Both the position numbers and the translations under genes were made by a program. Under the pieces are notes generated by a model. It was not told the DNA's origin. It did not search any database and saw only the letters and a list, made by a program, of their open reading frames with translations. This document shows, one piece after another, positions 15,553 to 43,909 of a DNA stretch of 58,041 bases. Source of the DNA: Minisyncoccia bacterium (GTDB lineage: Bacteria > Patescibacteriota > Minisyncoccia > Phycocordibacterales > GWA1-40-21); assembly GCA_044346845.1 (NCBI GenBank), contig JBIIYK010000001.1, forward strand, positions 1-58,041, written 5' to 3'. The first letter of the stretch is position 1. The number at the start of each line of letters is the position of its first letter.

Positions 15553-15560
15553 GTTATTTT

Positions 15561-16133
15561 TTACCCAAATAAGGTGTGGGTCATGGCGGACCTATTTTTA
15601 TCATCCCACTTTGAAGTGTCTAGTTTTATGTCTTTTATAACGCCGCCATCTTTTACTTTTAGTAAATTATTTTTTACAGCGTAGTCATAAACATCCTTAG
15701 TAATTCTAACATCTTCAATACAATATTCTATTACGTCATTGTATTTACCTTGCTTCCACCACTCCATAGCTTGTAAGCCGTGACTGGTTTTTTTACGTCC
15801 TAAAGTGGCTTCAGCTACGTAGTCTAACTTTACCCGTCTGCCAAAAGATTTTTTTATTTCATCTAATAAATCTAGGCTGCCTAATTTGGTCAAATCACCA
15901 GAGTAATATCTGTTTAAAATTGGAATATCAAAACTATCACTATTATAGCCAATCAGAAGATCAGCTTTTTCTAGGATCGGCCAAAGATCTTTTAACTGCT
16001 CCTGGGTGTAGCTAGAATATTTATCTGTTTCTGAATCATAAATACAAACTACATACATATTGGGAAAAACTTCTTTTCCGCCAATGTTAGTAATTATGCC
16101 ATCAGTTTCAATATCAAAAAATATTTTTCGCAT
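15561..16133 (-). CDS. DEDD-family 3'-5' exonuclease (RNase H-like fold)
   Basis: 190 aa. Exo motifs FFDIETDG, YNSDSFDIP and YCIEDV. Confidence 0.7.
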   Translation of the reverse strand: MRKIFFDIETDGIITNIGGKEVFPNMYVVCIYDSETDKYSSYTQEQLKDLWPILEKADLLIGYNSDSFDIPILNRYYSGDLTKLGSLDLLDEIKKSFGRRVKLDYVAEATLGRKKTSHGLQAMEWWKQGKYNDVIEYCIEDVRITKDVYDYAVKNNLLKVKDGGVIKDIKLDTSKWDDKNRSAMTHTLFG

Positions 16134-16164
16134 ATACGATTTTATTAGATTAACCTTGTTTTAT

Positions 16165-17460
16165 TTATAACAGATCAGTAATTTTATCTTCAGTCACTGT
16201 TTTTTCTTCACCAGTTTCTAGGTTTTTTAATTTAAATTGACCAGTCTTGATTTCATCTTCACCTATACAAATCACGTAGGGAATCTTTTGTTTACTAGCA
16301 GACTTTATTTGGTCACCAACTTTTTTATCAGTTAGGTTTACTGCTACATTTATGCCCCCAGCCCTTAAAGTTTGCGCTAGTTCGTTTGCAAATTCCTGGT
16401 ATTCTTTTTTAAGGGTACAGATATATAAGTTAGTTTTTGGCTTGTATTCTGGTATTAAATTAAGGGGCTCTAAAATATCTTTAATAACCACATCACCCAT
16501 CCCAAACCCGAAAGCGGGAACTTTTTCTCCACCAAAGATGGAGAGTAAATCATCATAACGTCCACCACCAAAGACTGATCTTCGACTTTCATTACCAAAC
16601 ACTTCAAAGACGATACCGGTATAATAGTCAAAACCACGCATCAGGGTTTGATCAAATATTACATTGGTAATTCCCAGTTTTTCCAGTTGAGCAATAACCT
16701 CTCTTATCTCATCTACTTTAGAAGACACTTCTAAAGTTTGTGGCAGGCGAGATATAAACTGTTCAAAATTTTGAGAGTTAATGAGAGTTAAAAATTCAGC
16801 CGTTTTTTCTGTTAATAATTCTTTAATAGAATCAGTAAAGACCTCTTCGGAAAGTTTGTTCTTCTTGTCTAGTAACTTGCATATCTTATATGAAGTTTCT
16901 TCATTTAAGGACATCAGATCGGTCATGATGTAATTCATGATTTTTCGGCTGTTTAGGCGAATCTGAAAATCAGTATCCTTCAAATTAAATTCTTTCATGA
17001 TGGCATAGGCCATGGAAAGTACTTCCACTTCGGCGGAAATGTCAGCAACACCAAATAGGTCTACATTTAATTGCCAATGTTCTCGCAAACGGCCTTTTTG
17101 AGGTTTTTCATATCTAAATAGATTTGGAATAGAATACCAGCGTAGAGGAAAAGATAACTCCTGTTTTCTAGCGGCTACCATACGGGCTAGAGTGGGGGTC
17201 ATCTCCGGTCTCAAGGTTACTTCTCGGTCACCACGGTCAGTGAAGGTGTATGTTTGTTCATTTATTATTTCTTCACCGCTTTTAGCCCGGTATAAATCAG
17301 CTGATTCTAAAATAGAAGCATCATATTCATTGTAGCCAAAGCTTTCCGCCACTTTACGCATTTTACTAAAGAGATACTTTTGAACAAACATATCTTCTGG
17401 ATAAAAGTCTCTAACTCCCTTATAGCTTTCAGTGCTTATTTTAATTGTTTTTTTCTCCAT
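16165..17460 (-). CDS. hisS: histidine--tRNA ligase
   Basis: Class II aaRS motif 2 FRYEKPQKGRLREHWQ and a C-terminal anticodon-binding domain. I chose the Met at 17460 (MEKKTIKIS...) because an extended -10 (TGATACAAT, minus strand, 17469-17477) sits 8 nt upstream. The track ORF extends to 17496. Confidence 0.9.
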   Translation of the reverse strand: MEKKTIKISTESYKGVRDFYPEDMFVQKYLFSKMRKVAESFGYNEYDASILESADLYRAKSGEEIINEQTYTFTDRGDREVTLRPEMTPTLARMVAARKQELSFPLRWYSIPNLFRYEKPQKGRLREHWQLNVDLFGVADISAEVEVLSMAYAIMKEFNLKDTDFQIRLNSRKIMNYIMTDLMSLNEETSYKICKLLDKKNKLSEEVFTDSIKELLTEKTAEFLTLINSQNFEQFISRLPQTLEVSSKVDEIREVIAQLEKLGITNVIFDQTLMRGFDYYTGIVFEVFGNESRRSVFGGGRYDDLLSIFGGEKVPAFGFGMGDVVIKDILEPLNLIPEYKPKTNLYICTLKKEYQEFANELAQTLRAGGINVAVNLTDKKVGDQIKSASKQKIPYVICIGEDEIKTGQFKLKNLETGEEKTVTEDKITDLL

Positions 17461-17481
17461 ATCAGAGTATTGTATCAAAAT

Positions 17482-18243
17482 ATGACCCAGAAACAAGTGG
17501 TTTTAAGATTAGATAAAAAGACTGGAGAGACTCCTCTGGAGTGCCTAAACAGATTTAAAACAGATAATCCGGAATATGCGGATGAGAAGATGACCTATGC
17601 GGGCCGGTTGGATCCTTTGGCCTCTGGAGTTCTCTTGGTCTTGGTGGGGGATGAGTGTAAGAAGAAAGAAAAATATTTAAATTTAGATAAAGAATATGAG
17701 TTGACTATCCTTTTCGGTTTTTCTACGGACAGTATGGATTTGTTAGGTTTGGTGGAGGACAAGAAAACTGGAGCTTTAGACTTCTTTGGCGGTTATAAAA
17801 AAAGTAATTTTGAGGAATTACTAAATAAATTTACCAAGACTTTTCTGCAAAAATATCCTCGGTTTTCTTCTAAAACTGTGGATGGCAAACCCCTATTTGA
17901 AATTGCTAAAGAGGAGGGAATAGAAGAAGATGATTTACCAACCAAAGAAGTAAAAATAAAAAAAATAGAATTTAAATCTTTTGGTCTTGTTTCAAAAAAA
18001 TATTTACATGATTTTGCTCTAGAATCTATTTTTTCCGTCAAAGGTAACTTTCGACAAAACATGAGCTGGGCTTTGTGGGAGAAAACTTTAGAAACTTTTC
18101 CGGATAAAAATTTTCCAACTTTAACCATAATAGTTTCCTGCACCAGCGGTACTTATATGCGAGCATTAGCCAAGTCCGTTGGGGCTGAAATCGGTTTTCC
18201 GGCTTTAGCTTTGAAAATAAAGCGTTTATCAATCGGGCGGTAA
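17482..18243 (+). CDS. truB: tRNA pseudouridine(55) synthase
   Basis: Catalytic motif YAGRLDPLASGVLLVLVG. Start taken at MTQKQVV (17482). The upstream part of the track ORF is antisense to hisS. Confidence 0.85.
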   Translation: MTQKQVVLRLDKKTGETPLECLNRFKTDNPEYADEKMTYAGRLDPLASGVLLVLVGDECKKKEKYLNLDKEYELTILFGFSTDSMDLLGLVEDKKTGALDFFGGYKKSNFEELLNKFTKTFLQKYPRFSSKTVDGKPLFEIAKEEGIEEDDLPTKEVKIKKIEFKSFGLVSKKYLHDFALESIFSVKGNFRQNMSWALWEKTLETFPDKNFPTLTIIVSCTSGTYMRALAKSVGAEIGFPALALKIKRLSIGR

Positions 18244-18245
18244 TC

Positions 18246-18309
18246 AGTAAAATATTTGCGCTTTACCCTTCCCGAATACGGGTGGGTCCTACGCGACGAA
18301 TATTTTACT
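18246..18309 (+). other. 64-nt hairpin immediately after the truB stop (terminator-like or regulatory)
   Basis: An 11-bp perfect lower stem AGTAAAATATT/AATATTTTACT encloses a GC-rich apical hairpin CCCG-AATA-CGGG. There is no clean T-run after it. Confidence 0.4.
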
Positions 18310-18425
18310 AATTACCGCCCTCGTGCTATACTCATCCTGTCGTAGATGTTCTCGGGGGTTTAAGCAAGTAAATTTCTTAGCCAAGGAGAGGGTCGCTCTA
18401 TCGATAAGTTTAACAAGAAAATACA

Positions 18426-18728
18426 ATGGCAAAGAAATTATATGTTGGTAACTTGTCTTATAACACCACTGATGCTTCACTTAAAGATGCTTTTGCACCT
18501 TTGGGAGAGGTTGAATCAGCAAATGTTATTACTGATAAGATGACCGGCCGTTCTAGAGGTTTTGGATTCGTTAATATGGTCAATGATGCGGAAGCAGAAG
18601 CGGCTATAGAAAAGATGAACGGAGCTGATATGGAAGGCAGAAAGCTTACTGTGAACGAGGCAAAACCTCTTTCAGAAAGGCCTCCAAAAAGAAATTTTGA
18701 CAACCGTTCTGGTGGTTCAAGATACTAG
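18426..18728 (+). CDS. RRM-type RNA-binding protein
   Basis: 100 aa. RNP2 LYVGNL and RNP1 RGFGFV motifs. It is preceded by TGCTATACT (18324-18332) and a 5' UTR of about 85 nt. Confidence 0.9.
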   Translation: MAKKLYVGNLSYNTTDASLKDAFAPLGEVESANVITDKMTGRSRGFGFVNMVNDAEAEAAIEKMNGADMEGRKLTVNEAKPLSERPPKRNFDNRSGGSRY

Positions 18729-18743
18729 TATCTAATACTTAAA

Positions 18744-18777
18744 CAAAAAAACAGAGAATTAATTCTCTGTTTTTTTG
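18744..18777. terminator. bidirectional intrinsic terminator between the RRM gene and typA
   Basis: Perfect 10-bp stem ACAGAGAATT/AATTCTCTGT, flanked by an A-run upstream and a T-run downstream. Confidence 0.8.
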
Positions 18778-18786
18778 TTTGTAATT

Positions 18787-20568
18787 TTATCTGATAGCTC
18801 TTGATCTATCAATCTTAGTTAAATACTTTTTTCTTAAACGAGTGTTAAGAGGTGTGACTTCCAAATAATCTTCACTGCCCATAATCTCTAAACCTTTTTC
18901 AATATCAATAGGCATAGATGGAGTTAAATATATAGCTTCATCAGAACTAGTTTTACGAACGTTGGTTAGATTTTTACCTTTGATTGGATTTACATCCATA
19001 TCTTCACCCTTGGTAACATTACCAATAAGCATTCCTTCATAAACTTCTGTTCCAGGATTAATATACAGCACACCTCTTTCCTGAAGATTCCAAAGGGCAA
19101 AAGCCAAGGCTTTACCATCCATCATAGAAACCATAGAACCAAATTCTTGTTTTTGTATATCACCGGCATATGGTTTGAAATCTAAGAAACGGCTACAAAG
19201 AATACCATTACCTCTAGTATCCACCACAAATTGACCCTTGAAGCCAAGTAGACCACGGGTAGGTACTTCATAAATCATTCGAACCTGGCCGTCTTTGGTT
19301 TTCATATCTTGCATAATACCTCGGCGTTTACCTAGTTTTTCAATTACCACTCCAGAACATTCTTCCGGTACATCAATAGTAACTTCCTCATATGGTTCAC
19401 TTTTAACCCCATCAATATCTTTAATAATCGCTTGAGGTTGAGAAACCTGTAATTCAAAACCTTCTCGGCGCATGTTTTCAATCAGGATAGCTATGTGTAA
19501 TTCACCTCGGCCATAAACCTTCATGGTGTCCTGGGTAAATTCAATTTTAAGACCAACGTTTATTTCCAATTCTCTTTCTAATCGCTCACGAATCTGACGG
19601 CCGGTTACAAATTTTCCTTCACGGCCGGCAAAAGGGCTGTCATTAACTAAAAAGTTTAGAGAAATTGTGGGTTCATCAATATTAATAGAAGGGAGAGTTT
19701 CTTGTTTATCATCTTCGCAAACAGTCTCTCCTATATAAGCATCTTCAAGTCCAGCAAAAAGGACAATGTCACCAGCAATCGCTTCGGTTACTTCTTTTCG
19801 GCTGATTCCTTCAAAAGTAAAAAGTTTGGTTATTTTAAAAGGTCTGGAAGCCCCTTCGTGGGTCTTGGAAAAAATCCTCTGTCCAGTTTTTAATGTGCCT
19901 TTGTAAATTCGGCAGATAGCCAGGCGGCCCATAAAATTATCATAAGCGAGGTTAAAAATCTGAGCGGTTAAAGGCAGTTTTTCATCTCCGGCATTGGCAG
20001 CAGCGGGGACCTTTTCTAAAATCAAATCCAAAAGTGGAGTTAAGTCTATTTGTTCATCGGTCGGTCTTTTCATGGCCACACCCTTTCGTCCCACGGCATA
20101 AATAGTAGGGAAGTCTAGCTGTTCATTATTAGCACCAAGCTCCATAAAAAGTTCTAGCACTGCTTCATGGCACCATTCTGGCTTAGCGGCATTTTTATCA
20201 ATTTTATTAATAATTACTATTGGTTTTAGGCCAAGCTCTAGAGATTTTTTTAAGACAAAGCGTGTCTGGGGCATAGGGCCTTCTTGAGCATCTACCACTA
20301 GAAGAACCGTATCAATAGAGCGTAAAACTCTTTCCACTTCAGAACCAAAATCAGCGTGACCGGGTGTGTCTACGATATTTATTTTAGTGCCTTTATAAGG
20401 AATAGAGGTGTTTTTGGCATAAATGGTAATACCACGCTCGAGCTCGAGTTTATTTGAATCCATAGAGACACCTTCTTTGGACATACCAGCTTGCTTCATA
20501 AGAGCATCTGTTAAGGTTGTCTTACCATGGTCCACGTGAGCAATAATTGCAATATTTCGTATTTCCAT
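18787..20568 (-). CDS. typA: translational GTPase TypA/BipA
   Basis: 593 aa. G1 AHVDHGKTT, DTPGHADF, NKIDK, and EF-G-like domains. Confidence 0.95.
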   Translation of the reverse strand: MEIRNIAIIAHVDHGKTTLTDALMKQAGMSKEGVSMDSNKLELERGITIYAKNTSIPYKGTKINIVDTPGHADFGSEVERVLRSIDTVLLVVDAQEGPMPQTRFVLKKSLELGLKPIVIINKIDKNAAKPEWCHEAVLELFMELGANNEQLDFPTIYAVGRKGVAMKRPTDEQIDLTPLLDLILEKVPAAANAGDEKLPLTAQIFNLAYDNFMGRLAICRIYKGTLKTGQRIFSKTHEGASRPFKITKLFTFEGISRKEVTEAIAGDIVLFAGLEDAYIGETVCEDDKQETLPSINIDEPTISLNFLVNDSPFAGREGKFVTGRQIRERLERELEINVGLKIEFTQDTMKVYGRGELHIAILIENMRREGFELQVSQPQAIIKDIDGVKSEPYEEVTIDVPEECSGVVIEKLGKRRGIMQDMKTKDGQVRMIYEVPTRGLLGFKGQFVVDTRGNGILCSRFLDFKPYAGDIQKQEFGSMVSMMDGKALAFALWNLQERGVLYINPGTEVYEGMLIGNVTKGEDMDVNPIKGKNLTNVRKTSSDEAIYLTPSMPIDIEKGLEIMGSEDYLEVTPLNTRLRKKYLTKIDRSRAIR

Positions 20569-20711
20569 TTTGTATAATTAAATAAAGCGCCGAAGCGCAG
20601 GTTTGATATCCAATTAAAGCATATATTTAATAAAATAGGAAGGGTAGGTAGAAACAATTTCTTTTCTATAACTTTTTAGGTTTTTTTATATAGCATAATT
20701 GTGTTCTCTTG

Positions 20712-20720
20712 TGGTATAAT
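20712..20720 (+). promoter_or_regulatory. extended -10 box TGGTATAAT for xfp
   Basis: TGgTATAAT ends 7 nt before the ATG at 20728, with no SD. This predicts a leaderless mRNA. Confidence 0.55.
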
Positions 20721-20727
20721 TTTCCTT

Positions 20728-23115
20728 ATGAATAATGAAATAGAAAAGATTAAGAAATTTGTGCGCGCCACAAATTATTTATCAGTTGGGCAAATTTATT
20801 TACAAAATAATTTTTTACTTAAAGACAAGCTAACTCTTGAGGATATTAAATCACGTTTACTTGGTCACTGGGGAACTTGTCCTGGTATTAACTTTGTTTA
20901 TGCCTGTTTGAATAATTTAATTATAAAGACTGACGCTAATATGATGTTTGTTTTAGGCCCAGGTCACGGCTTTCCAGCTCTTCAGTCTAATGTTTTCTTA
21001 GAAGGTACGCTTAGTAAATATTATAATGAGGCTCACATAAACGAAGCTGGTATTTCTTACATTACTAAAAATTTTAGCTGGCCATATGGTTTTCCAAGCC
21101 ATAGCAGCCCTATGACTCCGGGGGTTATTTTAGAGGGTGGGGAACTTGGTTATTCACTTTCTACCTCTTATGGGGCAGTTTTAGATAATCCAGATTTAAT
21201 CGTTGCTTGCCTCGTGGCAGATGGTGAAAATGAGACTGGAGCTTCTGCTACTGCTTGGCACCTTTCTAAATTTGTGGATCCGGCTAAAAATGGAGCGGTA
21301 TTACCTATTTTACATTTAAACGGTTACAAAATTTCTGGCCCAACTATTTTTGGTCGGATGAAAAATGCTGATCTCAAATCCTTGTTTAAGGGTTATGGTT
21401 ATGAACCAATTATTGTGGAAGGAAAGGGTGATAAGGTGTATGAAAAAATGGTAGAAGCCTTGGACATTGCTTATGCAGAGATCAGAAGAATTCAAAAAGA
21501 AGCTCGGGAGAATCCCAACAGAAAGCTTGATGATTATCTTAGATTTCCGATGATTATACTAAAAACCCCTAAGGGTTGGACAGGTCCAAAGTTTTTAAAA
21601 GGTTTTAAGATTGAGGGTAGTGGTGACAAAATAGAGGGTAACTGTTTATCACATCAAGTGGTGGGTAAAGAGGCTAAGACAGATAAAACTCAATTAAGAA
21701 TGGTGGAAAAATGGTTGCATTCATATAAATTTGAGGAACTTTTTGATACAGAAACTGGTTTTGTTAAAGATGTTTTAGACGTGGTACCTAGAGACGGTTT
21801 GCGAATGGGTGATAATCCTATTGCTCTAGGAATCAGAAAGGGTGATTTGAGTAGAAACTTGATTCTACCTAATGTTGAAAATTTTGAAACGAAAATGGAA
21901 AAAATGGGTGAGACGTCATTAGGGTCTATGAAAAGGATCGGAGAATATTTGGCGGAGGTTGTAAAACTTAATCAAGAAAAAAGAAATTTCCGTTTATTTT
22001 CACCAGATGAAACTTATTCTAATCGTCTGCAGGATATGTTCAAGGAGACTACCAGAGCTTTTGTAGGTAAGATAGAAGAGTGGGACAAGGATATGTCTCG
22101 TGACGGACGAATTATTGAGATGCTGTCTGAACAATCTTTGCAAGGTTTGGCACAAGGTTATATTTTGACCGGAAGATTTGCTATCTTTGTTTCCTATGAG
22201 GCGTTTATTCCAATAGTTTCTAGTATGGCTGATCAGTATAGTAAGTTTTTAAAAATCGCAAAGAAAACTGAATGGAGAGGGGATGTGCCATCATTTAATT
22301 ATATTTTAACTTCCACTGGTTGGCGTCAGGAACACAATGGCTTCTCTCATCAGAACCCAGGCTTTATGGATAGTTTACTACAAAAAGGCCACGATTTTAT
22401 TAATGTCTATTTTCCTGCCGACGCCAATGAAGCTGTCTTGATTATGGAAAAATGTTTGATTTCTAAAAATGAAATAAACGTAATTGTGGCTGAAAAAACC
22501 CTAGAGCCGGTTTGGCTTTCTTTGACAGAGGCCAAGAGAGAGGTAGAAGACGGTATTTCTATTTGGGGCTTTGCCAGTGATGATGACCCAGACGTTGTTT
22601 TTGCTGGTTGTGGACAGTATTTAGTAAAAGAATGTTTAGCCGCCATTAAATTAATTAAGGAAGAGGCGCCGGAGATAAAGGCGCGTTTTGTAAATATACT
22701 AGAGCTTTCTCCAAACACGGTTGGAAATAATAAATCTATAAGTGAAGCTAATTTTGAAAAATATTTTACTTTAGATAAACCAGTAATTTTAAATTTTCAT
22801 GGTTATCCAGATACTTTGGAGCAAACTTTATTCACCTATCAAAACGCTTTAGACAGGTTATCTATTCATGGCTACATGGAAAGCGGATCCACTACCACGC
22901 CACTTGATATTCATATTAGAAATAAAACTGACCGCTATAATTTATTCATTGAAGCTGTAAACAAAGTGGCCAAGGTGGGAGTAATTGGTTTAGAAAAAGC
23001 TAATACTTTGGTTAGGAAATATGAAAATAAGATTAAGGATCATAAGGATTATATTATGACTGTTGGTGACGATCCGGAAGAAATTTTGGATTGGAAATGG
23101 AACAATAATAAATAA
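20728..23115 (+). CDS. xfp: xylulose-5-phosphate/fructose-6-phosphate phosphoketolase
   Basis: About 795 aa. Phosphoketolase signatures GPGHG and EGGELGYS. Start placed at MNNEIEK, downstream of the -10 box. The track ORF begins at GTG 20701. Confidence 0.9.
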   Translation: MNNEIEKIKKFVRATNYLSVGQIYLQNNFLLKDKLTLEDIKSRLLGHWGTCPGINFVYACLNNLIIKTDANMMFVLGPGHGFPALQSNVFLEGTLSKYYNEAHINEAGISYITKNFSWPYGFPSHSSPMTPGVILEGGELGYSLSTSYGAVLDNPDLIVACLVADGENETGASATAWHLSKFVDPAKNGAVLPILHLNGYKISGPTIFGRMKNADLKSLFKGYGYEPIIVEGKGDKVYEKMVEALDIAYAEIRRIQKEARENPNRKLDDYLRFPMIILKTPKGWTGPKFLKGFKIEGSGDKIEGNCLSHQVVGKEAKTDKTQLRMVEKWLHSYKFEELFDTETGFVKDVLDVVPRDGLRMGDNPIALGIRKGDLSRNLILPNVENFETKMEKMGETSLGSMKRIGEYLAEVVKLNQEKRNFRLFSPDETYSNRLQDMFKETTRAFVGKIEEWDKDMSRDGRIIEMLSEQSLQGLAQGYILTGRFAIFVSYEAFIPIVSSMADQYSKFLKIAKKTEWRGDVPSFNYILTSTGWRQEHNGFSHQNPGFMDSLLQKGHDFINVYFPADANEAVLIMEKCLISKNEINVIVAEKTLEPVWLSLTEAKREVEDGISIWGFASDDDPDVVFAGCGQYLVKECLAAIKLIKEEAPEIKARFVNILELSPNTVGNNKSISEANFEKYFTLDKPVILNFHGYPDTLEQTLFTYQNALDRLSIHGYMESGSTTTPLDIHIRNKTDRYNLFIEAVNKVAKVGVIGLEKANTLVRKYENKIKDHKDYIMTVGDDPEEILDWKWNNNK

Positions 23116-25565: not shown

Positions 25566-25630
25566 TTTTCTCACCCTTTATTTTTTAAAAGTTTTCTGTT
25601 AAGATGTGTTTTGTGGCGAAAGCCATTATA

Positions 25631-25756
25631 TTCCGTGGTAGTTGAGATGCGAACACTTGGAGCATCTCAAAGACGGAGCACGACGGTGCGAGTCGGGGTT
25701 GCGAAATTTTTCACCAGAAAAATATTTGTAACCAGCGGTTCCGCGAGCTACCACAA
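25631..25756 (+). ncRNA. GC-rich structured element E, closed by GTGGTAG/CTACCAC, with tRNA-Asn-like ends (family with 27538-27675 and 39742-39832)
   Basis: It begins with TCCGTGGTAG, identical to the tRNA-Asn 5' end. It contains three hairpins: TTGAGATGC/GCATCTCAA, GCAC-GACG-GTGC and GGTTGCGAAATTTTT/AAAAATATTTGTAACC. No ORF. Clearly GC-rich against the AT-rich flanks (not counted; the related insert at 27541-27600 counts 50%). Confidence 0.35.
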
Positions 25757-25771
25757 AAGAATATGCAATAT

Positions 25772-25846
25772 TCCGTGGTAGCTCAGCGGTAGAGCGATCG
25801 CCTGTTAAGCGATTGGTCGTAGGTTCGATCCCTACCCACGGAGCCA
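25772..25846 (+). tRNA. tRNA-Asn (GTT), CCA encoded
   Basis: Hand-folded cloverleaf TCCGTGG-TA-GCTC-AGCGGT-AGAGC-G-ATCGC-CTGTTAA-GCGAT-TGGTC-GTAGG-TTCGATC-CCTAC-CCACGGA-G-CCA. Confidence 0.9.
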
Positions 25847-26052
25847 TGTATATATTTGATATACATTTTTAATGGGGATGCCTAAATATAAATCGGGAGT
25901 AAAATATTTATTCTGGTATTTTTTGGTTATTGCATATTTTAGACCAGAAATTGCACCGGAATATGGCATTGAAAAAGAGGAGGGAGATTGAATTATATAA
26001 TTAGAAATGATATATTTAATGTATTGTTTTATTAATTTTAATTTGTAAGTGT

Positions 26053-26532
26053 ATGCAGGTAAAAGAGAAAATAATTTATTCATCGATAATCTTTCTGGCT
26101 TTTATAGCGGCTATCGTTATTCTTTTTAGTGTGTTTAATTTATACAAAACACTTGCTCCAAATTGGGGGATTGGTAATTCAATGTCTGATGCTCCTGGCT
26201 ATTATGCTTCTTGTCAAAAGTTTAAGAATAACTATGAAATAGGTGTTAATATAAATACTTATAATAAAGGGGTAGACAATGTTGTATTAGAGTTGGTCTC
26301 AAACGGTGGTATGACTTCAGATAAAGAAAAAATTGAAATTCCATTTATATCACAAAACTCCTCTGATATTGGAATATTTACTCTTACCGGCGAACCGACA
26401 AAAAGTTCTGTTATAAGGATAACTTACGTTATGAAAGGATTTTGGGGTCAGAAAAATTATTCATCAATAATTACACCAGGTCCAGATTGTTCAGTGACAG
26501 ACAATCCCGAACTTATGCCTAAACCGTATTAA
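26053..26532 (+). CDS. hypothetical signal-anchored or secreted protein (cassette 1)
   Basis: 159 aa. N-terminal TM segment IIYSSIIFLAFIAAIVILFSVF. No recognisable domain. Confidence 0.55.
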   Translation: MQVKEKIIYSSIIFLAFIAAIVILFSVFNLYKTLAPNWGIGNSMSDAPGYYASCQKFKNNYEIGVNINTYNKGVDNVVLELVSNGGMTSDKEKIEIPFISQNSSDIGIFTLTGEPTKSSVIRITYVMKGFWGQKNYSSIITPGPDCSVTDNPELMPKPY

Positions 26533-26542
26533 TTTATTATAG

Positions 26543-26639
26543 AAAACAATTTCTAACTCCATACACCAGATGGAGCAAAATTTCTAGCCTTATAAATCAT
26601 GGGTTATTTTTCTTACCCGTGATAGGATTCGAAACTATT
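26543..26639. repeat. junction element A: intact imperfect palindrome of about 97 bp between cassettes
   Basis: The left arm AACAATTTCTAACTCCAT (26545-26562) matches the reverse complement of the right arm ATAGGATTCGAAACTATT (26622-26639) at 12 of 18 positions. The left half recurs at 27437-27474 and 28419-28457, and the right half at 27728-27791. Confidence 0.6.
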
Positions 26640-26679
26640 ATTTTTTGTCATATATAGATTCTAATGTATAATCTTAAAT

Positions 26680-27408
26680 ATGAAAAAAAGTGCCTTAATC
26701 ATCTTAGATGGGACTATGAAAGGAGCATATACTGTTGGTATTTTGCGTGTTTTTTACGAAAAATTAGGTCTAAATTATTTTGATTCGATATATTCTTTTT
26801 CCGTGGGCATATTTGAGCAAGCATTTTTTGTTGCCAACCAGCCGGAAACAATGGAAAACACCTGGCGAAATTATGTCAGTGGAAGTAAATTGATTAACCC
26901 TTTTAATGTATTTAGAGGTAAGGCAATTTTAGATCTAGATTATCTTACTGGGTTATTTCAAACAGAAATGTCTTTGCTCAATATTAAACAAATGCTTATA
27001 TCTCCAATAAATATTTATTGTTTTGTTACAGATCATAGTACACGCTTACCTGTGATACTTAATCTAAAGGAAGGGGAAAATATCTTTGATATTATGCGTG
27101 CTTCTTGTGCTGTCCCTCTCTTATATCCTCCTGTGAAAATTGGGAACAAAAAATATATTGATGGGGTATTTGCATGTAAGAAAAAAATTATGATGGAGAT
27201 CAAACGAATTTGTGACCGGTTCGATGAGATTATTGTAATAAGTAATTCAGGTAGTATTAGATTTTTACCTACTAATCCAAAAATTAAATTACTTAGGCCT
27301 TCTGATATGCCATTGTGGCATCCTCTTGATACTAATCGTTCCAGAATTATTAAAACAATTGAACAAGGAAAGATGGATGCGTTAGAGTTTTTGCAAAATC
27401 AAGGATAG
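26680..27408 (+). CDS. patatin-like phospholipase (cassette 2)
   Basis: 242 aa. Oxyanion-region LDGTMKGAYTVG, nucleophile-elbow-like SFSVG, and catalytic Asp motif IDGVFA. It has its own promoter: TTGTCA-N16-TATAAT (26645-26672), 7 nt before the ATG. Confidence 0.7.
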   Translation: MKKSALIILDGTMKGAYTVGILRVFYEKLGLNYFDSIYSFSVGIFEQAFFVANQPETMENTWRNYVSGSKLINPFNVFRGKAILDLDYLTGLFQTEMSLLNIKQMLISPINIYCFVTDHSTRLPVILNLKEGENIFDIMRASCAVPLLYPPVKIGNKKYIDGVFACKKKIMMEIKRICDRFDEIIVISNSGSIRFLPTNPKIKLLRPSDMPLWHPLDTNRSRIIKTIEQGKMDALEFLQNQG

Positions 27409-27436
27409 GTGTTTGACTATGTGCAAACATAATCAG

Positions 27437-27474
27437 TAAAACAAGTTCTAACGTCCTCTAGCCAGTGGAGCAAA
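27437..27474. repeat. junction element B, left half
   Basis: TAAAACAAGTTCTAACGTCCTCTAGCCAGTGGAGCAAA aligns with the left half of A and with C (GTCCTCTAGCCAGTGGAGCAAA vs ATCCTCTAGTCACTGGAGTAAA, 19/22). Confidence 0.6.
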
Positions 27475-27727
27475 TGAAAACCCCTTGAAAAAGGGTGTTT
27501 TTATTTGCTCCGTGAGAAAGTGATATGTATCACTTTCGTGGTAGGCGATTAGAAAATCGAACCGAGAGGAGTCGAACGGCAGAGCGTTATGAGGTTAGCA
27601 GACCGAATCGCGAGCCAGTGCCCAGACAAAGTTTTTTGACGAAAAAACCCTAGTCGAGGGAGATATCCCTACCCATAGGACTGCGATTTAAACAAATTGA
27701 GTACAATTTAATAAATCGGGGGCCCAC
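27475..27727 (+). mobile_element. 253-bp GC-rich non-coding insert I splitting junction element B, flanked by direct GGAGCAA repeats
   Basis: Filled site versus empty site: A reads TGGAGCAAAATTTCTAGCC without interruption. B reads TGGAGCAAA[253 bp]GGAGCAAGTTTTCTAGCC. The insert carries a terminator-like hairpin (27467-27511), a 9-10 bp hairpin (27517-27538), a structured core (27538-27675) and fragments identical to the tRNA-Asn 3' end. Confidence 0.5.
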
Positions 27728-27791
27728 GGAGCAAGTTTTCTAGCCTTATAAATCAAAGGTTATTTTCCTTACCCCGAGGCTAAATTCAAAC
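27728..27791. repeat. junction element B, right half
   Basis: GGAGCAAGTTTTCTAGCCTTATAAATCAAAGGTTATTTTCCTTACCCCGAGGCTAAATTCAAAC aligns along its whole length with 26574-26635 of element A. Confidence 0.6.
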
Positions 27792-27794
27792 CTC

Positions 27795-27824
27795 TTGCAT
27801 AAGATTGTGATATTGTGATATAAT
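27795..27824 (+). promoter_or_regulatory. sigma70-type promoter TTGCAT-N18-TGATATAAT driving a tiny unit
   Basis: TTGCAT at 27795-27800 and TGaTATAAT at 27816-27824. A tandem ATTGTGAT ATTGTGAT repeat and the GTGATA/TATCAC inverted repeat overlap it. Confidence 0.5.
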
Positions 27825-27846
27825 ACTGTTATCACTATGAAAGAGA

Positions 27847-27885
27847 CCCTTGTGTAGATCTGTCTACACCGGGGGCTTTTTCTTT
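27847..27885 (+). terminator. intrinsic terminator of the tiny plus-strand unit, abutting the NYN gene stop
   Basis: CCCTTGTGTAGA-TCTG-TCTACACCGGG stem followed by GGCTTTTTCTTTT. Confidence 0.55.
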
Positions 27886-28373
27886 TAGGAAGAGACTTTA
27901 TTGGAAAATTTATGATAATGCTCGTTTAAAAAAGTAATTTCAATATTTTTATTTCGTAGTAAAAAAGAGCATTTCTTTTTATCAGGGGCAATAATTTGAC
28001 TCATGGATTTTTTCTCTTTCAAAAATTCTACCAAACAACCAAAATCACCATCGCCAGTAATTAAAATGCAAGAAGAAAATGATTTCTCATAAAAATCAGA
28101 CGTAGCTTTTAATACCAATTCAGCGTCACAGTTTCCTTTCACTTTCTCTCCAATAGAGACTGTTTGTTTAAAAACTAAAATATAGCCACAACTTTGTAAG
28201 TGTTCGTAAAACTTTACTCTTTCCGGTACTAAACCAATGAATAAATAGACAAAATTTGGATTGTATTTTTGACGAAGCCAGCCTCTAAATTTTTTATAAT
28301 CAATTTCAAAGCCGAGCTCTTTGGCTGATCGATATAAATTATTACCGTCGATGTAGATATTTATTTTATTCAC
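27885..28373 (-). CDS. NYN-domain (LabA/DUF88-like) putative ribonuclease (cassette 3)
   Basis: 162 aa. IYIDGNNLY and ITGDGDF acidic motifs. GTG start, 6 nt downstream of an extended -10 TGATATAAT (minus strand, 28380-28388). Confidence 0.7.
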   Translation of the reverse strand: MNKINIYIDGNNLYRSAKELGFEIDYKKFRGWLRQKYNPNFVYLFIGLVPERVKFYEHLQSCGYILVFKQTVSIGEKVKGNCDAELVLKATSDFYEKSFSSCILITGDGDFGCLVEFLKEKKSMSQIIAPDKKKCSFLLRNKNIEITFLNEHYHKFSNKVSS

Positions 28374-28418
28374 GCGGTGATTATATCATAAATATTTAAA
28401 ATAACGGTTAAATATATA

Positions 28419-28457
28419 GAAAATAGTTTCTAATATCCTCTAGTCACTGGAGTAAAA
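28419..28457. repeat. junction element C (left half only)
   Basis: GAAAATAGTTTCTAATATCCTCTAGTCACTGGAGTAAAA aligns with the left halves of A and B. Confidence 0.55.
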
Positions 28458-28458
28458 T

Positions 28459-28486
28459 AAAAGACCACCGTTTGGTGGTTTTTTTG
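28459..28486. terminator. terminator-like hairpin following junction element C
   Basis: ACCACC-GTTT-GGTGGT stem with a T-run after it and an A-rich run before it. Confidence 0.5.
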
Positions 28487-28616
28487 TTTAGTACAAAGTA
28501 TTGACAAAAAAGGTAATAAGTTATAAACTAAAATTAGAATTAGTGTGTTAGGAATAATAAAGCAGGCATAATGCAGGCTATTCCTAATATTGAAAATTGG
28601 TCAGAAGGGAGATAAA

Positions 28617-29075
28617 ATGAATATTTCGCGGAAAATATGGCTAGTAGCGGTGCATCTTTTGGTGGCGGGATTTATTATCGGATGCGAACAATCCGGAGAT
28701 GAGTCCGGATTTGCCCTGTCGACTTGTAAGACACAAGGATTCCCAAACTTTAGTGGTGCGGCATCTGCTGAGGGTTCGGCTCCCGGGAGCATGGTGTTCA
28801 ATTGTCTTGGGGTTACCATGGTTTCTCCCTCAACAATGTTTGTTTCGTTCCAATATCGGGCAAGCGCGAGCAGCACTTACGAGAAAGCGTCATTTGCCGT
28901 CTATATTAAGAACCACCTTGCGCAAAAAATGAGTTTTGCTAACCCGTCAGACAGCATGGGATCGTTTGTGGTTGCAATTCCGGCAGGATGCGCGCCAGAT
29001 GATGTCAGTTTCTGTGCTTACTCTGGCGATTGGGGGGTGTCAGTTCTTATCGACGAAATCTCTTTTCAGCAATAA
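28617..29075 (+). CDS. GC-rich lipoprotein of unknown function (cassette 4)
   Basis: 152 aa from ATG 28617, with SD AGGGA 7 nt upstream. Signal peptide with lipobox FIIGC. Hand counts give 48-50% GC at 28641-28760, against about 33% in the flanks. The track ORF starts at TTG 28590. Confidence 0.6.
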   Translation: MNISRKIWLVAVHLLVAGFIIGCEQSGDESGFALSTCKTQGFPNFSGAASAEGSAPGSMVFNCLGVTMVSPSTMFVSFQYRASASSTYEKASFAVYIKNHLAQKMSFANPSDSMGSFVVAIPAGCAPDDVSFCAYSGDWGVSVLIDEISFQQ

Positions 29076-29083
29076 TCGTTCAC

Positions 29084-29114
29084 ATGCCCCGCGGTAATAC
29101 CAAAGGGCATTTTT
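29084..29114 (+). terminator. intrinsic terminator of the lipoprotein gene
   Basis: ATGCCC...GGGCAT stem followed by TTTT. Confidence 0.55.
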
Positions 29115-29118
29115 AAAT

Positions 29119-29280
29119 ATGCACAACGGACCAGTAGAATTACTTATTTCTTTTTTAAACCTTTCTCATGTTTCAGAAATTTTGGATTTTTCTATAGCTA
29201 GTCTAATTACGGGGGCTATTATTGGTTTGATAATCGCTCTAATTTATAGACAGATAAAAAATAAAAAAGAAATTATTTAA
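29119..29280 (+). CDS. possible 53-aa single-TM peptide
   Basis: My own translation: MHNGPVELLISFLNLSHVSEILDFSIASLITGAIIGLIIALIYRQIKNKKEII. It is below the track cutoff and has no clear SD or promoter. Confidence 0.3.
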   Translation: MHNGPVELLISFLNLSHVSEILDFSIASLITGAIIGLIIALIYRQIKNKKEII

Positions 29281-29461
29281 TAATTTATACTAAACTCAAT
29301 AAATGAACCATTTCTTTATTATTTACCTCCAAATCTCCTATAGAATTACCCCAATCAAAAGTTCGAAAGCTGTCCCACCAAGAGAGCCCAATTTTTAATC
29401 ATATATTTGCATTCTTATATAGGAAGTCTATAATACAGAGTATATTAATTAAATAAAAAAT

Positions 29462-29848
29462 ATGGAAAAAATGACACCAGAAAGTAATCCTCAAGATAAT
29501 CTAAATCTAGCCCAAACACAATCAACTGAGTCGGCTGAATCAACACAATCAACCGAGTCAATACAACAAGATTTTAACGAGTTTAAGGAAATATTCCCTA
29601 TTGCTCAAGTTTACGATGATTATATATTCAGAATAGATACTTATCCAACCACAATGGAAGGTTCAAATGGTAATGGCATTAAAATATGGATTACTCCACT
29701 TTATGATAATACTTACAAGATCGAATATGAAGCACAAGCGGATTGGCAAATATCTATACCTAAAAAGACCGTTTCCGAAAAAATGTCAAAAAAGGACGTC
29801 CTGTATTACCTAGATAAAGCCCAAAATCTTCAAAAATTTAATAAATAA
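29462..29848 (+). CDS. hypothetical protein with N-terminal STES-rich low-complexity region
   Basis: 128-aa ORF. Upstream promoter TTGCAT-N16-TATAAT at about 29407-29434. Confidence 0.5.
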   Translation: MEKMTPESNPQDNLNLAQTQSTESAESTQSTESIQQDFNEFKEIFPIAQVYDDYIFRIDTYPTTMEGSNGNGIKIWITPLYDNTYKIEYEAQADWQISIPKKTVSEKMSKKDVLYYLDKAQNLQKFNK

Positions 29849-34031: not shown

Positions 34032-34409
34032 ATGAAGAGTACTGAAAACGGTAGTGTGAAGCAGGTGGTTTGGGGTATCTCTATTTTGTTTGTGGTATTT
34101 TTTGGGTCACTTTTTGCGCTTGAGGTTTGCGTTAAGGTGGATCCGTTACCGCCCGATACAGTTACTAAAACTGTGGCGGTCACGAACCAGGTCGCAAATA
34201 CGAATGGTTTGGATGAGGTGGTTCACCGGAATACTGCTTCGGGGTATCAAGGTGGCCGGGTGATGGTCATAGCCGATCTATCTTCAGCCTTAAATTTAGC
34301 CAAGAGGAAATCCTCGGAGGCTGATCGAAGGGCGAGGAATGGAGAAGGTGATGATGCTTTTAATTTCAAAACAGAGGAGGTGTTCTCAAGTTCAAGTACG
34401 AATCAGTAA
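34032..34409 (+). CDS. GC-rich signal-anchored protein of unknown function
   Basis: 125 aa. TM segment VVWGISILFVVFFGSLFAL. Purine-rich SD-like AAAGGAAAG upstream. Confidence 0.5.
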   Translation: MKSTENGSVKQVVWGISILFVVFFGSLFALEVCVKVDPLPPDTVTKTVAVTNQVANTNGLDEVVHRNTASGYQGGRVMVIADLSSALNLAKRKSSEADRRARNGEGDDAFNFKTEEVFSSSSTNQ

Positions 34410-34465
34410 TGGGTTGGGGTGGAAAGATTTAGAATGGAAGATTAAAAAAACAAAGGGAGATACGA

Positions 34466-35488
34466 ATGAAGAAGATTGTGATGGCGATGCTGTTGGTTCT
34501 TGGTTTGGTTCAAGCGGGCCTGGCCCTGACGGAAGAACAGCGCTATCGGCGCTACGTGGTGTCCGCGATCGAGGAGGTCATTAACGGTGGTGCCTTGAAG
34601 GGGCAAATCTACGAATCAATCCCGGGCCAGAACTGGCCTCAGGAACCGAAGATGATCTCCTTCGGTGACTACTTCAAGAACGGGAGGGCCCAGGCTTTGA
34701 TGGACTGCGATGTGAGCTGGTATCAAGGTTGGGCGACTTGGAATAATTTGTCCAACGTACGGCTTTTTAGAAGTCAGTACATGGAGCAAACCTACATTAG
34801 CGCCGGCCTGCAAACAATGCCATTCATTATGAAGGTTGAGTCCGCTCGACTGATGAAGTTGAATGTACAAGGAGCTCTTCTTAATGATGGTGATGAACTT
34901 TGGTTTAACGGTGCGCGAGTTTATCAGAACGAAGCGGGCATCTGGCAGGTCTATGCCTACAAACCCTGGAACCTCATTGGCGCGGAAGTTGAAGTGGTTT
35001 GGACTGGGCGCGGTGGCTGGAGGATTCAAATGGATGAAAATTCATTTAGCGGGGTCATTAACTTGAATACCGCCCTCATGGATCAGACCCTCTTGGCCCC
35101 GACCAAGCTCAAGGCCATTTCATTCCTTGCCGAAGGTTCGGAATTGGAAGAAGGATTGGTGCGGTATACCGGCCGATCCTATGATGCGGATCTGGGATGT
35201 ACGGTGCTGAACTTGCAGTCCTTGTTCGATAAGGACATGAAGGAATTCACTTTGGTCCTGCGTGGTTTGGATGAACAATCCGGCCAGATGGTGAACTACT
35301 ACACCGTCTGCCTGCAGGATGTGGGCGATGACTTCATGGTGCCCTTGGGCGATACATATATTCGCCCGTGGACCGAAGTGAAGGTTTACCTCATGGATCC
35401 CCGGACTGGCGACTACATGCAGAAACGGCTGGATGCCCAGGATCTGTGGCGGGACGTGCCGGTGAACGTTGTGACCCCCATGAAGTAA
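34466..35488 (+). CDS. GC-rich secreted protein of unknown function
   Basis: 340 aa. Cleavable-type signal peptide MKKIVMAMLLVLGLVQAGLA. SD AGGGAG 7 nt upstream. Hand count gives 62% GC at 34501-34560. Confidence 0.7.
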   Translation: MKKIVMAMLLVLGLVQAGLALTEEQRYRRYVVSAIEEVINGGALKGQIYESIPGQNWPQEPKMISFGDYFKNGRAQALMDCDVSWYQGWATWNNLSNVRLFRSQYMEQTYISAGLQTMPFIMKVESARLMKLNVQGALLNDGDELWFNGARVYQNEAGIWQVYAYKPWNLIGAEVEVVWTGRGGWRIQMDENSFSGVINLNTALMDQTLLAPTKLKAISFLAEGSELEEGLVRYTGRSYDADLGCTVLNLQSLFDKDMKEFTLVLRGLDEQSGQMVNYYTVCLQDVGDDFMVPLGDTYIRPWTEVKVYLMDPRTGDYMQKRLDAQDLWRDVPVNVVTPMK

Positions 35489-39620: not shown

Positions 39621-39741
39621 AATAACAGTATAGACCCTACTTTCAGTTTCAGCAAATAAAAATATTTAAGAGATTTTAGCTATTTTATCTGGTCTGTGGT
39701 TTGGGCAGGTTTTAACTGAACATCTTTCGGGGATAGTTTTA

Positions 39742-39832
39742 GGTCATGAATAATTCTTCGTCGTCACTCAGAATTTTCTCGACCCCGGCTCGCGATTCGG
39801 CCTGCTGACCTCATAACGCTCCGCCTCACAAA
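39742..39832 (-). ncRNA. GC-rich structured element D (same family as E and I) between topA and relA
   Basis: The 39-mer at 39787-39825 is the reverse complement of 27578-27616 with 3 mismatches. The conserved GCGAGCCGGGGTCGAG is followed by the hairpin AATTCT...AGAATT. Confidence 0.4.
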
Positions 39833-39841
39833 AACAATTGT

Positions 39842-42997: not shown

Positions 42998-43909
42998 TTA
43001 TGTCAAATGCACTTCGCCGAGTTTTTCGGAGATGAGGCCTTTGAGCTCCATGACAGAGAGGACGGCATTGGCTTGGCCTATAGGCATATCCAGGGCGCGG
43101 AGGAGATCATCTTTTGGCATTGGTTCACGAAGAGCTTTGATGACGGCTTTTTCTTCCGGACTACATTCATTGTATTCAAGCTCTAAGTTTCTTGGGGCTG
43201 AATCTTTACTTTCAAAACCGAGAGCTAATAGCAATTCCTCAGGTTTGGTGATAGGTGTGGCGCCTAGGCGTATTAGTAAGTGCGGGCCACCGGAAGTTTT
43301 AGAAAAGATATTACCCGGAACAGTGAGGACGTCTTTATTATAATCGGTGGCCATTCTCGAAGTAATCATGGTGCCACTTTTTGTTTCGGCTTCAATAATA
43401 AGGACGGCACAGGAAAGTCCAGCCATAATTCTATTTCTTTGAGGAAAACTATAACGAGTAGCTTTAAAATTTGATTCAAATTCGGAGAGCATGCCGCCAT
43501 TATTTTCTAAAATTTTTTTCATTAAGCCCAGATGAGCAATGGGATGTAGGGAGTCCACACCAAGTCCTGAACCAGGTACGGCAATGGTTTTTAATCCGGT
43601 ATTCATAGCGGCTTCATGCGCAATACCATCAATACCAATGGCTAGACCGGAAACAATAGCTATATCATAACCGCGCAGACCAGCAATTAGTTTTTCACAA
43701 GCCTCCTTGCCGTAATTTGTATAACGTCTAGAGCCTACGACACAAAGTAGTTTGGTATTTGGTCCAGGTAGATTACCTCGGAGGAAAAGTCTTTCTGGTT
43801 TTTGGGGAATCTCTAGGAGTTGTTCTGGGAATTCCTTCTTTTTTAATTCACGAATGGGAAAATCTCTATCAATTGGGTGAATTATTTTCATGATTGTAAA
43901 TTCTAACAT
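42998..43909 (-). CDS. dprA: DNA processing protein DprA/Smf
   Basis: 303 aa. Rossmann-like core SGLAIGIDGIAHEAA and a C-terminal winged-helix-like domain. Confidence 0.85.
   Translation of the reverse strand: MLEFTIMKIIHPIDRDFPIRELKKKEFPEQLLEIPQKPERLFLRGNLPGPNTKLLCVVGSRRYTNYGKEACEKLIAGLRGYDIAIVSGLAIGIDGIAHEAAMNTGLKTIAVPGSGLGVDSLHPIAHLGLMKKILENNGGMLSEFESNFKATRYSFPQRNRIMAGLSCAVLIIEAETKSGTMITSRMATDYNKDVLTVPGNIFSKTSGGPHLLIRLGATPITKPEELLLALGFESKDSAPRNLELEYNECSPEEKAVIKALREPMPKDDLLRALDMPIGQANAVLSVMELKGLISEKLGEVHLT

Follow-up and report, generated by a model that had tools for sequence, protein, structure and literature searches.

Integrase-less cis-mobilizable elements (CIMEs) and genomic islands accrete in tandem behind conserved genes, tRNA genes among them, at the gene's 3' end. 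This is seen in ICESt1 and CIME accretion at fda in Streptococcus thermophilus and in the tRNA-flanked hypervariable islands of Prochlorococcus, which contain internal partial-tRNA repeats. Here we describe an array of small gene units in a 58,041-nt stretch of DNA from a Minisyncoccia bacterium (GenBank assembly GCA_044346845.1, contig JBIIYK010000001.1; this whole stretch is called the window below). The array lies directly 3' of a tRNA-Asn(GTT) gene (25772–25846, + strand; found by ARAGORN, Rfam score 71.5 bits) and appears to consist of five self-contained, head-to-tail units, each ending in a ~34-nt sequence that we call the left half of the junction (JL). Four of the units carry protein genes (0.72–0.93 kb) and one is a 261-nt unit that looks like a tRNA-like RNA gene. 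Between strains, units are gained, lost, and replaced at the motif GGAGC at the end of the tRNA, and no recombinase gene was detected in the cassettes or the window. A histidine kinase gene flanks the array, and its named homologues in Candidatus Taylorbacteria and Paceibacterota place the host in the candidate phyla radiation (CPR), or Patescibacteria. These bacteria have very small genomes with few recognisable mobile elements, and how they gain and shuffle accessory genes is poorly understood.

The array shares several properties with CIMEs and accreted islands. Its anchor is a tRNA gene's 3' end, in a hotspot that varies between strains, direct repeats akin to that end mark the unit boundaries, and the units are without a recombinase of their own, so that one would be needed in trans. 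It differs in that the units are the size of single genes (0.26–0.93 kb) rather than several kilobases, the sites are not exact repeats of the tRNA end but a degenerate family of their own, in which a tRNA mimic is joined to a copy of the flank, the block of identity is only about 7 nt, and the host belongs to the CPR. To our knowledge there is no described integrase-bearing element cognate to the array, and an integrase is the one feature of a tRNA-linked island that the array lacks.

The array also resembles an integron. Mostly single-gene cassettes follow one another head to tail, separated by a family of ~100-bp, imperfectly palindromic sites, and they are present, absent, or replaced exactly at these sites. 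One fixed anchor site heads the array, and in its unoccupied form, found in the relative L015, it folds as single-stranded DNA into one long imperfect hairpin on both strands (z-score –5.8). By contrast, there is no intI, attI, or Pc within the window, and a tRNA gene heads the array. The crossover is not at an edge but mid-site, with 34 nt to the left and 60 nt to the right. The cassettes bring their own promoters and terminators. The 97-bp junction of the window folds only into local hairpins (z-score –2.7), and the corresponding junction of the relative L014 forms a long hairpin weakly. The array has none of the R'' (RYYYAAC) and R' (GTTRRRY) boxes; between 25800 and 29500 we found no R''/R' pair on either strand, as compared with 13 chance pairs in the window. 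The view in the initial annotation, which was made from the sequence without database searches, that the repeats are not canonical attC sites is therefore upheld. Because the boxes and an intI gene in the window are lacking and the cassettes have their own promoters, we rejected membership in the integrons. The same annotation had likened the layout to an integron array or to serial tRNA-targeted integrations. Our results support this pair of ideas, and serial integration at the tRNA end fits better than an integron proper because of the missing boxes, the cassettes' own promoters, and the tRNA anchor.

The repeat between the units was initially described as an intact 97-bp element with partial copies elsewhere in the array. 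Pairwise identities and BLAST show that the copies are real. Three 43-nt copies of the left half are 63–77% identical and two copies of the right half (JR) are 89% identical over 47 nt (BLAST E 2.7e-10). JL has the form TTCTAAY-hairpin-GGAGC and aligns with the T-loop, the T-stem, and the acceptor 3' strand of tRNA-Asn; the likeness to the tRNA 3' end that had been noticed earlier thus extends upstream as far as the T-loop. The JL copies all terminate in GGAGC, one of them in the variant GGAGT, and the JL hairpin contains G-T wobble pairs that favour the + strand. Because the copies have in common AAAACARTTTCTAAC, a 5-nt insertion, and a local hairpin, all missing from the tRNA, we consider them a family of their own. 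JR, which is ~60 nt long, is homologous to the native flank 3' of tRNA-Asn in L015, where the site is "empty" and the tRNA is directly followed by ACAAAAAGACCATATAAATCAATGGTCTTTTTT...GGGTGGTTCGAACCTAC and then by the gene for a 159-aa protein. Both the native flank and JR are made of a terminator hairpin and a T-arm-like hairpin. Since JL mimics the tRNA end and JR is homologous to the native flank, the 97-bp repeat is a hybrid junction, made of the JL of one unit and the JR of the next, and it is equivalent to an unoccupied site (tRNA 3' end plus native flank).

Two other copies take on a different meaning with this division. The copy described as split (27437–27474 plus 27728–27791) is a real match to the repeat but is better read as two junction halves around a separate 261-nt unit, and the left-half copy at 28420 also retains the first hairpin of the right half, where it serves as a terminator. 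A fourth, left-half-like copy (29357–29387) is real but marginal; a profile built from complete junctions gives it an E of 0.21 (29356–29407), and its best alignment is with the left half of a relative. The direct-repeat core at the junctions occurs as ACGGAGC, ATGGAGC, GTGGAGC, CTGGAGT, and GAGAGC.

Every junction lies in the strand and orientation of tRNA-Asn, and the rest of the window and the other loci examined are free of them. The pattern TTCTAAY-N(8-24)-TGGAGYAAA has three occurrences in the window, all on the + strand and all in the array, where 0.01 would be expected; it was derived from these same three copies, so this count mainly shows that the window holds no further copy. Within the window the junction profile likewise matched only array positions. 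By profile and BLAST, copies were restricted to the array in the window and to orthologous arrays of relatives, in a search that took in ~40 related loci as well as viral, phage, and plasmid collections. A scan of species-representative genomes with an 18-mer from the right half gave only chance matches of 18–22 nt, the source genome not being in that set. Within these data we rejected a generic dispersed repeat of the repetitive extragenic palindrome (REP) or terminator kind, the outcome that the initial annotation had named as speaking against a cassette array.

Evidence for recombination at the junctions comes from relatives. Three contigs (L013, L014, and L015) are ~92% identical to the window. 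The locus is variable among these haplotypes, with units gained, lost, and replaced, and at three junctions in several haplotypes the breakpoints coincide to the base with the repeats, immediately after GGAGC. Both outcomes are in line with what the initial annotation had anticipated for a cassette array. The tRNA-Asn gene is intact in all four sequences, its core ACGGAGC ends at 25844 in the window, and variable DNA begins at or after ...CCCACGGAGC. Up to and including this sequence the window, L015, and L013/L014 are identical, and from the next base there are three different continuations. In the window this is a lineage-specific 146-nt filler (25847–25992, + strand) with a terminator-like hairpin (GTATAT-ATTTG-ATATAC followed by TTTTT), standing where L015 has its 62-nt native right half; the alignment between the two stops at 25846/25847 and picks up again at 25993. 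A homologue of the 261-nt RNA unit, unit B, sits directly after tRNA-Asn in L013/L014.

The comparison of L015 with L014 captures a recent event. The two contigs are 99.89% identical over 2636 nt upstream, and L014 has an extra 3.25 kb that is flanked on both sides by ACGGAGC. This segment contains the unit B homologue and a unit with genes for proteins of 59, 275, and 528 aa, the largest of which resembles a secreted PsbP/Ig-like protein; none of the three matched a recombinase family. On the far side of the segment, the left half has a 5-nt insertion and several substitutions relative to the tRNA. The adjoining right half and the start of the 159-aa gene are about 95% identical to L015 over 192 nt. 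Because the far-side left half is so unlike the tRNA and the right half next to it is so like L015, the crossover between L014 and L015 is placed at GGAGC and not in the T-loop. A T-loop crossover, as in the classical integrase model, was rejected for this indel since the far-side left half is no copy of the resident tRNA end.

This event bears on the idea that classical tRNA-integrating islands or prophages, each once equipped with its own integrase, have shrunk by deletion to one gene apiece and left the array as their graveyard, with the left halves being successively displaced and decaying tRNA 3' ends. Such a history is known to leave partial tRNA repeats within tRNA-linked islands, as in Prochlorococcus islands and in tandem island accretion, and in some relatives this tRNA-Asn is indeed occupied by an element that has a large serine recombinase. 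However, the recent 3.25-kb indel separates strains that are 99.9% identical and came without an integrase, the left halves are more like each other than like the tRNA in the features given above, and all of the units are complete, possessing a promoter, a gene, and a terminator. That the left half at the recent indel is very unlike the tRNA, next to a right half ~95% identical to L015, also indicates that left halves are carried by the elements rather than displaced from the tRNA. We regard the graveyard as distinctly improbable.

The relatives with the serine recombinase are more distant. In L016–L021 (66% identity in the kinase) tRNA-Asn is followed by a large serine recombinase gene (553 aa; 2917–4611 in L017) and a mobile element with SNF2, RhuM, and methylase genes. 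Gene calling left the matching 1.8 kb empty in L016 and L020. This element has no junction repeat in common with the array. Another lineage with 66% kinase identity, L022, has a restriction-modification and defence island after the kinase (10868–20867) with DpnI, two methylases, an AlwI-type enzyme, and DUF4365; in the L022 locus tRNA-Asn was not detected after the kinase. Because other relatives carry either the serine-recombinase element or the restriction-modification island there, the locus 3' of the kinase is a general hotspot.

Exchange was also seen farther into the array. L013 and L014 differ by 1 mismatch in 9060 nt and then diverge completely right after the GGAGC behind the 159-aa gene. 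From this point L013 has a JR-like stretch and a CYTH-like gene, L014 has a tRNA-like RNA unit, and the window has JR and a patatin gene. The unit with a NYN gene recurs in L060, a contig of a more distant species whose kinase is only 70% identical in protein, with 94% protein and 85% DNA identity. There it is inverted relative to the kinase and the homology ends inside JL3, the left half of this unit; beyond the left half, L060 has a Schlafen/AlbA_2 gene as opposed to the lipoprotein unit of the window. The neighbouring genes in L060 are 66–79% identical and a short 140-nt stretch near an RRM gene is 84% identical. Two more contigs end at the core, L061 at ...CCGGAGCC and L049 at ...GGGGGCCCA, which is expected where assembly graphs branch.

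Natural transformation followed by homologous recombination, or by illegitimate recombination that homology facilitates, could also produce breakpoints of this kind. The tRNA-Asn gene and the junction halves would then be only homology anchors, and there would be no dedicated recombinase or crossover site. In agreement with this, the window encodes DprA (42998–43909) and a type IV pilin-like protein with an N-terminal methylation motif (53389–54003), a pair that is consistent with natural competence and bears on how cassettes might arrive. Flank-anchored replacement would leave breakpoints at the end of a conserved tRNA, and the greater divergence on the right side of the 3.25-kb indel (95% identity, as against 99.9% on the left) suggests imported DNA. 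On the other hand, all units end in the same GGAGC after a conserved ~30-nt hairpin site, the junction halves are only 35–60 nt long and 60–89% alike, which makes them poor substrates for RecA, and the direct repeat around the recent indel is just 7 nt. Weighing these points, we consider transformation with homologous recombination unlikely to be the explanation.

The initial annotation noted that no integrase is present in the window, and this was confirmed with protein families. No tyrosine, serine, or HUH recombinase family was matched by the open reading frames (ORFs) scanned across the 58 kb, unannotated ones included. We also considered a cryptic recombinase among the unannotated window proteins (283, 353, 340, and 125 aa) or in the extra L014 cassette and rejected this because there were no matches. 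Scans of viral contigs with the left half, the right half, and patterns for two RNA motifs described below (core-1, strict and relaxed, and core-2) returned nothing or chance matches, and phage and plasmid collections gave a match only to tRNA-Asn itself. In the literature we searched there was no description of such arrays or of the motif.

The reading that we favour is that a recombinase acting in trans carries out serial site-specific recombination at the tRNA end, and we give it an even chance of being correct. It is favoured because the sites are similar over ~100 nt, the point of exchange is fixed, the orientation is uniform, and recent events occurred without a recombinase gene. Units would be inserted, excised, and exchanged by conservative site-specific recombination, with crossover inside the ~7-nt core (A/T/G)(C/T)GGAGC. 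The partners would be the tRNA-end site and the ~100-bp JL-core-JR site on a presumably circular cassette, and the enzyme would most likely be a tyrosine recombinase whose gene lies in another part of the genome or on a helper element. The anatomy of the array and its polymorphism are directly visible in the sequences; the enzyme, the circular form of the cassette, and the insertion direction are our inferences.

Several points weigh against this mechanism. No recombinase was found in the array, the 58-kb window, or the contigs of relatives, and no cognate integrase-bearing element was found in these or in the viral contigs. Neither a circular cassette nor an excision junction was observed. 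The core is short, its copies differ, and inverted recombinase-binding arms around it are not evident. The haplotype breakpoints mark the end of homology, and homologous recombination in the conserved flanks would also yield them. All of the comparators are metagenome assemblies. Lastly, with 85% DNA identity between the window and L060, the NYN unit may be old and vertically inherited rather than transferred.

Recombination served in trans is known from Xer modules, namely the pdif modules of Acinetobacter plasmids and integrative elements that exploit Xer. Like the array, these have small, recombinase-less cargo between copies of a site; in their case a housekeeping recombinase serves the sites. 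They differ in that no 28-bp dif-like site (11-6-11) was recognised in the array, although no formal search was made, and nothing palindromic of this form is visible around the core, and in that the array sites are all direct and tRNA-bound instead of alternating in XerC/XerD orientation on plasmids.

A different enzyme would be involved if the units move as single strands. HUH/Y1 transposition of the IS200/IS605 kind, or like that of palindrome-associated transposable elements (PATEs) or REP-associated tyrosine transposases (RAYTs), could act in trans with insertion 3' of GGAGC, and the JL and JR hairpins would then be subterminal recognition hairpins. Insertion is indeed orientation-specific and always directly 3' of GGAGC, units end in GGAGC after a hairpin whose G-T wobbles favour the + strand, and the native site as single-stranded DNA forms the long hairpin with a z-score of –5.8. 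However, a Y1 or HUH transposase was not found in the window, there are no copies at other GGAGC sites in the window, and the target and the element junction are alike over ~100 nt, which transposition does not require. We therefore think this route very improbable. A miniature inverted-repeat transposable element (MITE) or other DDE transposon was rejected since the units have no terminal inverted repeats, and the cores, which are preceded by the conserved ~30-nt site, differ at the two ends of a unit (for example GTGGAGC versus ACGGAGC).

If serial recombination is indeed driven by a dedicated enzyme acting in trans, the locus would represent a compact capture system, integron-like in its working, that evolved on a tRNA anchor, and it would offer a defined site pair for finding that enzyme. 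What the haplotypes show is gain, loss, and replacement of single-gene units between strains at one exact tRNA-end motif, although a recombinase is not linked to it. Among the cargo are a phospholipase, a NYN nuclease, surface proteins or lipoproteins, a Schlafen/AlbA gene (in L060), and an RNA gene. On the favoured reading, the array would be a form of tRNA-linked island accretion and integron-like capture that is new to both. A bolder proposal is that it is a gene-capture platform particular to the CPR (Paceibacteria), with the tRNA end as a fixed acceptor, the ~100-bp tRNA-mimicking cassette sites in the role of attC, and unlinked, undescribed machinery that perhaps involves the tRNA-like RNA family; we hold this as a doubtful, though conceivable, extension.

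The genes of the array are those that the initial annotation listed, and the overall arrangement of a tRNA-Asn gene followed by an array of single genes stands. Most units open with JR followed by their own promoter. Unit 1 (25845–26576, 732 nt, or 25993–26576 without the filler; + strand), delimited from its ORF and the relatives, carries the gene for the 159-aa hypothetical protein (26053–26532, + strand, from the ORF list), which is membrane-anchored and matched no Pfam, PHROG, or PADLOC family, and it ends in the GGAGC of JL1 (26543–26576). It is also present in L013, L014, and L015, and beyond its GGAGC the window, L014, and L013 all differ. Unit 2 (26577–27471, 895 nt, + strand) runs from JR (26577–26639) through a promoter (TTGTCA-16-TATAAT, 26645–26672, + strand) and a leaderless gene for a patatin-like phospholipase (26680–27408, + strand; PF01734, E 1e-13) to JL2 (27438–27471). 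The closest patatin homologues outside the lineage have at most 49% identity and sit in an unrelated context.

Unit 3, called B, is the structured RNA unit (27472–27732, 261 nt, + strand), recognised by its fold and by a covariance model, and is treated below. Unit 4 (27733–28453, 721 nt) lies between JR (27733–27794) and JL3 (28420–28453, ending in GGAGT) and contains a NYN ribonuclease-like gene on the minus strand (27885–28373; PF01936, E 6e-16); this gene has its own TGATATAAT, 6 nt away from a GTG start codon. A strong extended –10 promoter (TTGCAT...TGTGATATAAT, 27795–27824) is orphaned in this unit; behind it are only a 6-codon frame and a bidirectional terminator (about 27840–27884), and the NYN gene that comes next points the opposite way. 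The orphan promoter may be a remnant of a cassette gene that was lost or inverted.

Unit 5 (28454–29387, 934 nt, + strand) starts with a terminator (28459–28485) that is the remnant of the right half's first hairpin. A promoter (TTGACA-17-TAAACT, 28501–28529, + strand) is followed by a lipoprotein gene with a lipobox (28617–29075, + strand; GC 0.48 versus 0.36 for the window) and the gene for a 53-aa membrane peptide (29119–29280, + strand, from the ORF list). Given the GC content of the lipoprotein gene and the patatin gene's lack of close homologues, the cargo of the array looks foreign or sporadic. Because of the profile E-value of JL4 (29357–29387, ending in AGAGC), the right boundary of unit 5 at this copy is tentative. 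Beyond it, a promoter (29406–29434) and a gene for a 128-aa hypothetical protein (29388–29848 in all, + strand) may be either a last unit or chromosomal flank. Orthologues of a major facilitator superfamily (MFS) transporter gene were of no help in placing the right boundary of the array since synteny around this gene is not conserved among the relatives. Several cassettes had been credited with a promoter just ahead of the start codon. This applies to the patatin and NYN genes, in which an extended –10 box lies 6–7 nt from the start, but not to the lipoprotein gene, which has a Shine–Dalgarno leader. Contigs that are 99.9% identical to the window and have the same gene order were found in ENA, Logan, and JGI samples, and matching contigs occur in assembly GCA_041443065.1 and in JGI sample 3300059473.

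Unit B folds with a z-score of –5.5 and, as judged from its sequence and predicted pairing, appears to be a tRNA-like structured RNA gene unit. A terminator hairpin (27477–27502, + strand) is followed by an 11-nt strand, TTTGCTCCGTG (27504–27514, + strand), that pairs with the 3' end of the unit. Next come a hairpin (27515–27537, + strand), the pairing of which is kept in the L014 homologue despite a different sequence, and a T-stem-like GTGGTAGG (27538–27545, + strand). The middle of the unit is occupied by a motif that we call core-1 (27570–27664, + strand; covariance model score 96 bits). A T-arm-like GGGAGATATCCCTACCC (27658–27674, + strand) and a terminal CCCACGGAGC (27723–27732, + strand), which is identical to the end of tRNA-Asn, complete the unit.

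As a comparison, unit B is like the tRNA-like domain of transfer-messenger RNA (tmRNA) and YrlA/Y-RNA in having an acceptor-like closing helix and a T-stem-like helix around a large non-tRNA insert, and in having a 3' end identical to that of a genuine tRNA, with CCA following in L014. It differs in that there is no G3-U70 pair or tag reading frame and in that the helices of the shell match whichever tRNA is nearby (Asn in the window, Arg in L030). We rejected tmRNA, an intron-containing tRNA, a hammerhead, and a Y RNA as identities for unit B because neither ARAGORN nor Rfam supported them. Searches of unit B and core-1 against Rfam 15 found no family other than tRNAs, whether the cutoff was the gathering threshold or an E of up to 10 or 1. 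With its covariation support and absence from Rfam, the tRNA-like RNA with the core motif is a separate lead for RNA biology in the CPR.

Core-1 is a ~95-nt structured motif with an invariant 33-mer, GCGTTATGAG-hairpin-CGAATCGCGAGCC. In its first domain, a stem containing a tandem G-A internal loop is combined with a hairpin that has compensatory changes; the second domain is a long hairpin with a GACG loop. In the alignment 99% of cells are paired and 19 of the 21 pairs show compensatory changes, values that none of 500 shuffles reached; the alignment was fitted to the model, and shifted-pairing controls scored far lower. The string UUAUGAG-stem-CGAAU is reminiscent of a hammerhead, but it departs from one at C3 and G5, its flanking strands pair together, and we rejected this identity for core-1 as well. 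In a metagenome scan the 33-mer was found in 11 CPR contigs, located after tRNA-Thr, tRNA-Arg, or topA or within a tRNA-Lys cluster. Core-1 is present in L028, L029, L030, L031, L032, L035, L036, and L038, which represent several CPR lineages. The window itself has a further copy after the topA stop codon (39739–39833, – strand) and a weak one (25664–25736, + strand; covariance model 25.6 bits, E about 1e-3) in element A, described below.

In several copies, core-1 runs straight into a second copy of the last part of the gene upstream, 16 nt long for tRNA-Thr and 33 and 58 nt for topA, and in each case 0 of 500 shuffles scored as high. The pairs are 39625–39738 and 39834–39960 in the window (both – strand) and 815–928 and 1024–1150 in L038, with the tRNA-Thr case at 6255–6271 in L028. 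By their sequence, these decaying duplicates look like the trace of an insertion that carried in, or copied, the end of its target. Duplications of 16–58 nt are more like homology-driven events than a fixed target duplication and are a further point on the side of the transformation explanation considered above.

A second, unrelated core occurs in the same tRNA-like shell (…TTCTCCCATATTTTTGA..AATTCTTAT…AATGGGAAACCTATACTGT), at 1662–2060 in L030 and at 9064–9185 and 5340–5375 in L014. In the shell, one strand is complementary to the 3' end of the tRNA nearby; a hairpin and the two halves of a T-stem make up the rest. L030 has two units with the second core in tandem after tRNA-Arg, together with remnants of core-1 3' ends. 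The enclosing helices in L030 and L031 match different tRNA-like sequences, that of L030 being Arg.

Element A is a structured insert of ~140 nt upstream of tRNA-Asn (25628–25767, + strand; fold z-score –5.4) and is peripheral to the array. It is bounded by a 14-nt direct repeat, ATATTCCGTGGTAG (25628–25641 and 25768–25781), the second copy of which is the 5' end of the tRNA. It is missing in the relatives with 66% kinase identity, where 17 bp lie between the kinase region and the tRNA.

Elsewhere in the window, which has a GC content of 36%, two adjacent genes for proteins of 125 and 340 aa (34032–35488) have ~50% GC versus 36% for the genome and lie ~0.4 kb from tRNA-Trp. Neither matched a Pfam or PHROG family, and the pair is probably another acquired patch. 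We found neither a tandem nor a CRISPR repeat array in the window. A 128-aa protein encoded at 42143–42529 matches the Cas2-like PaaX_M and CRISPR_Cas2 families, and a single open reading frame of 2921 aa occupies 2728–11493.

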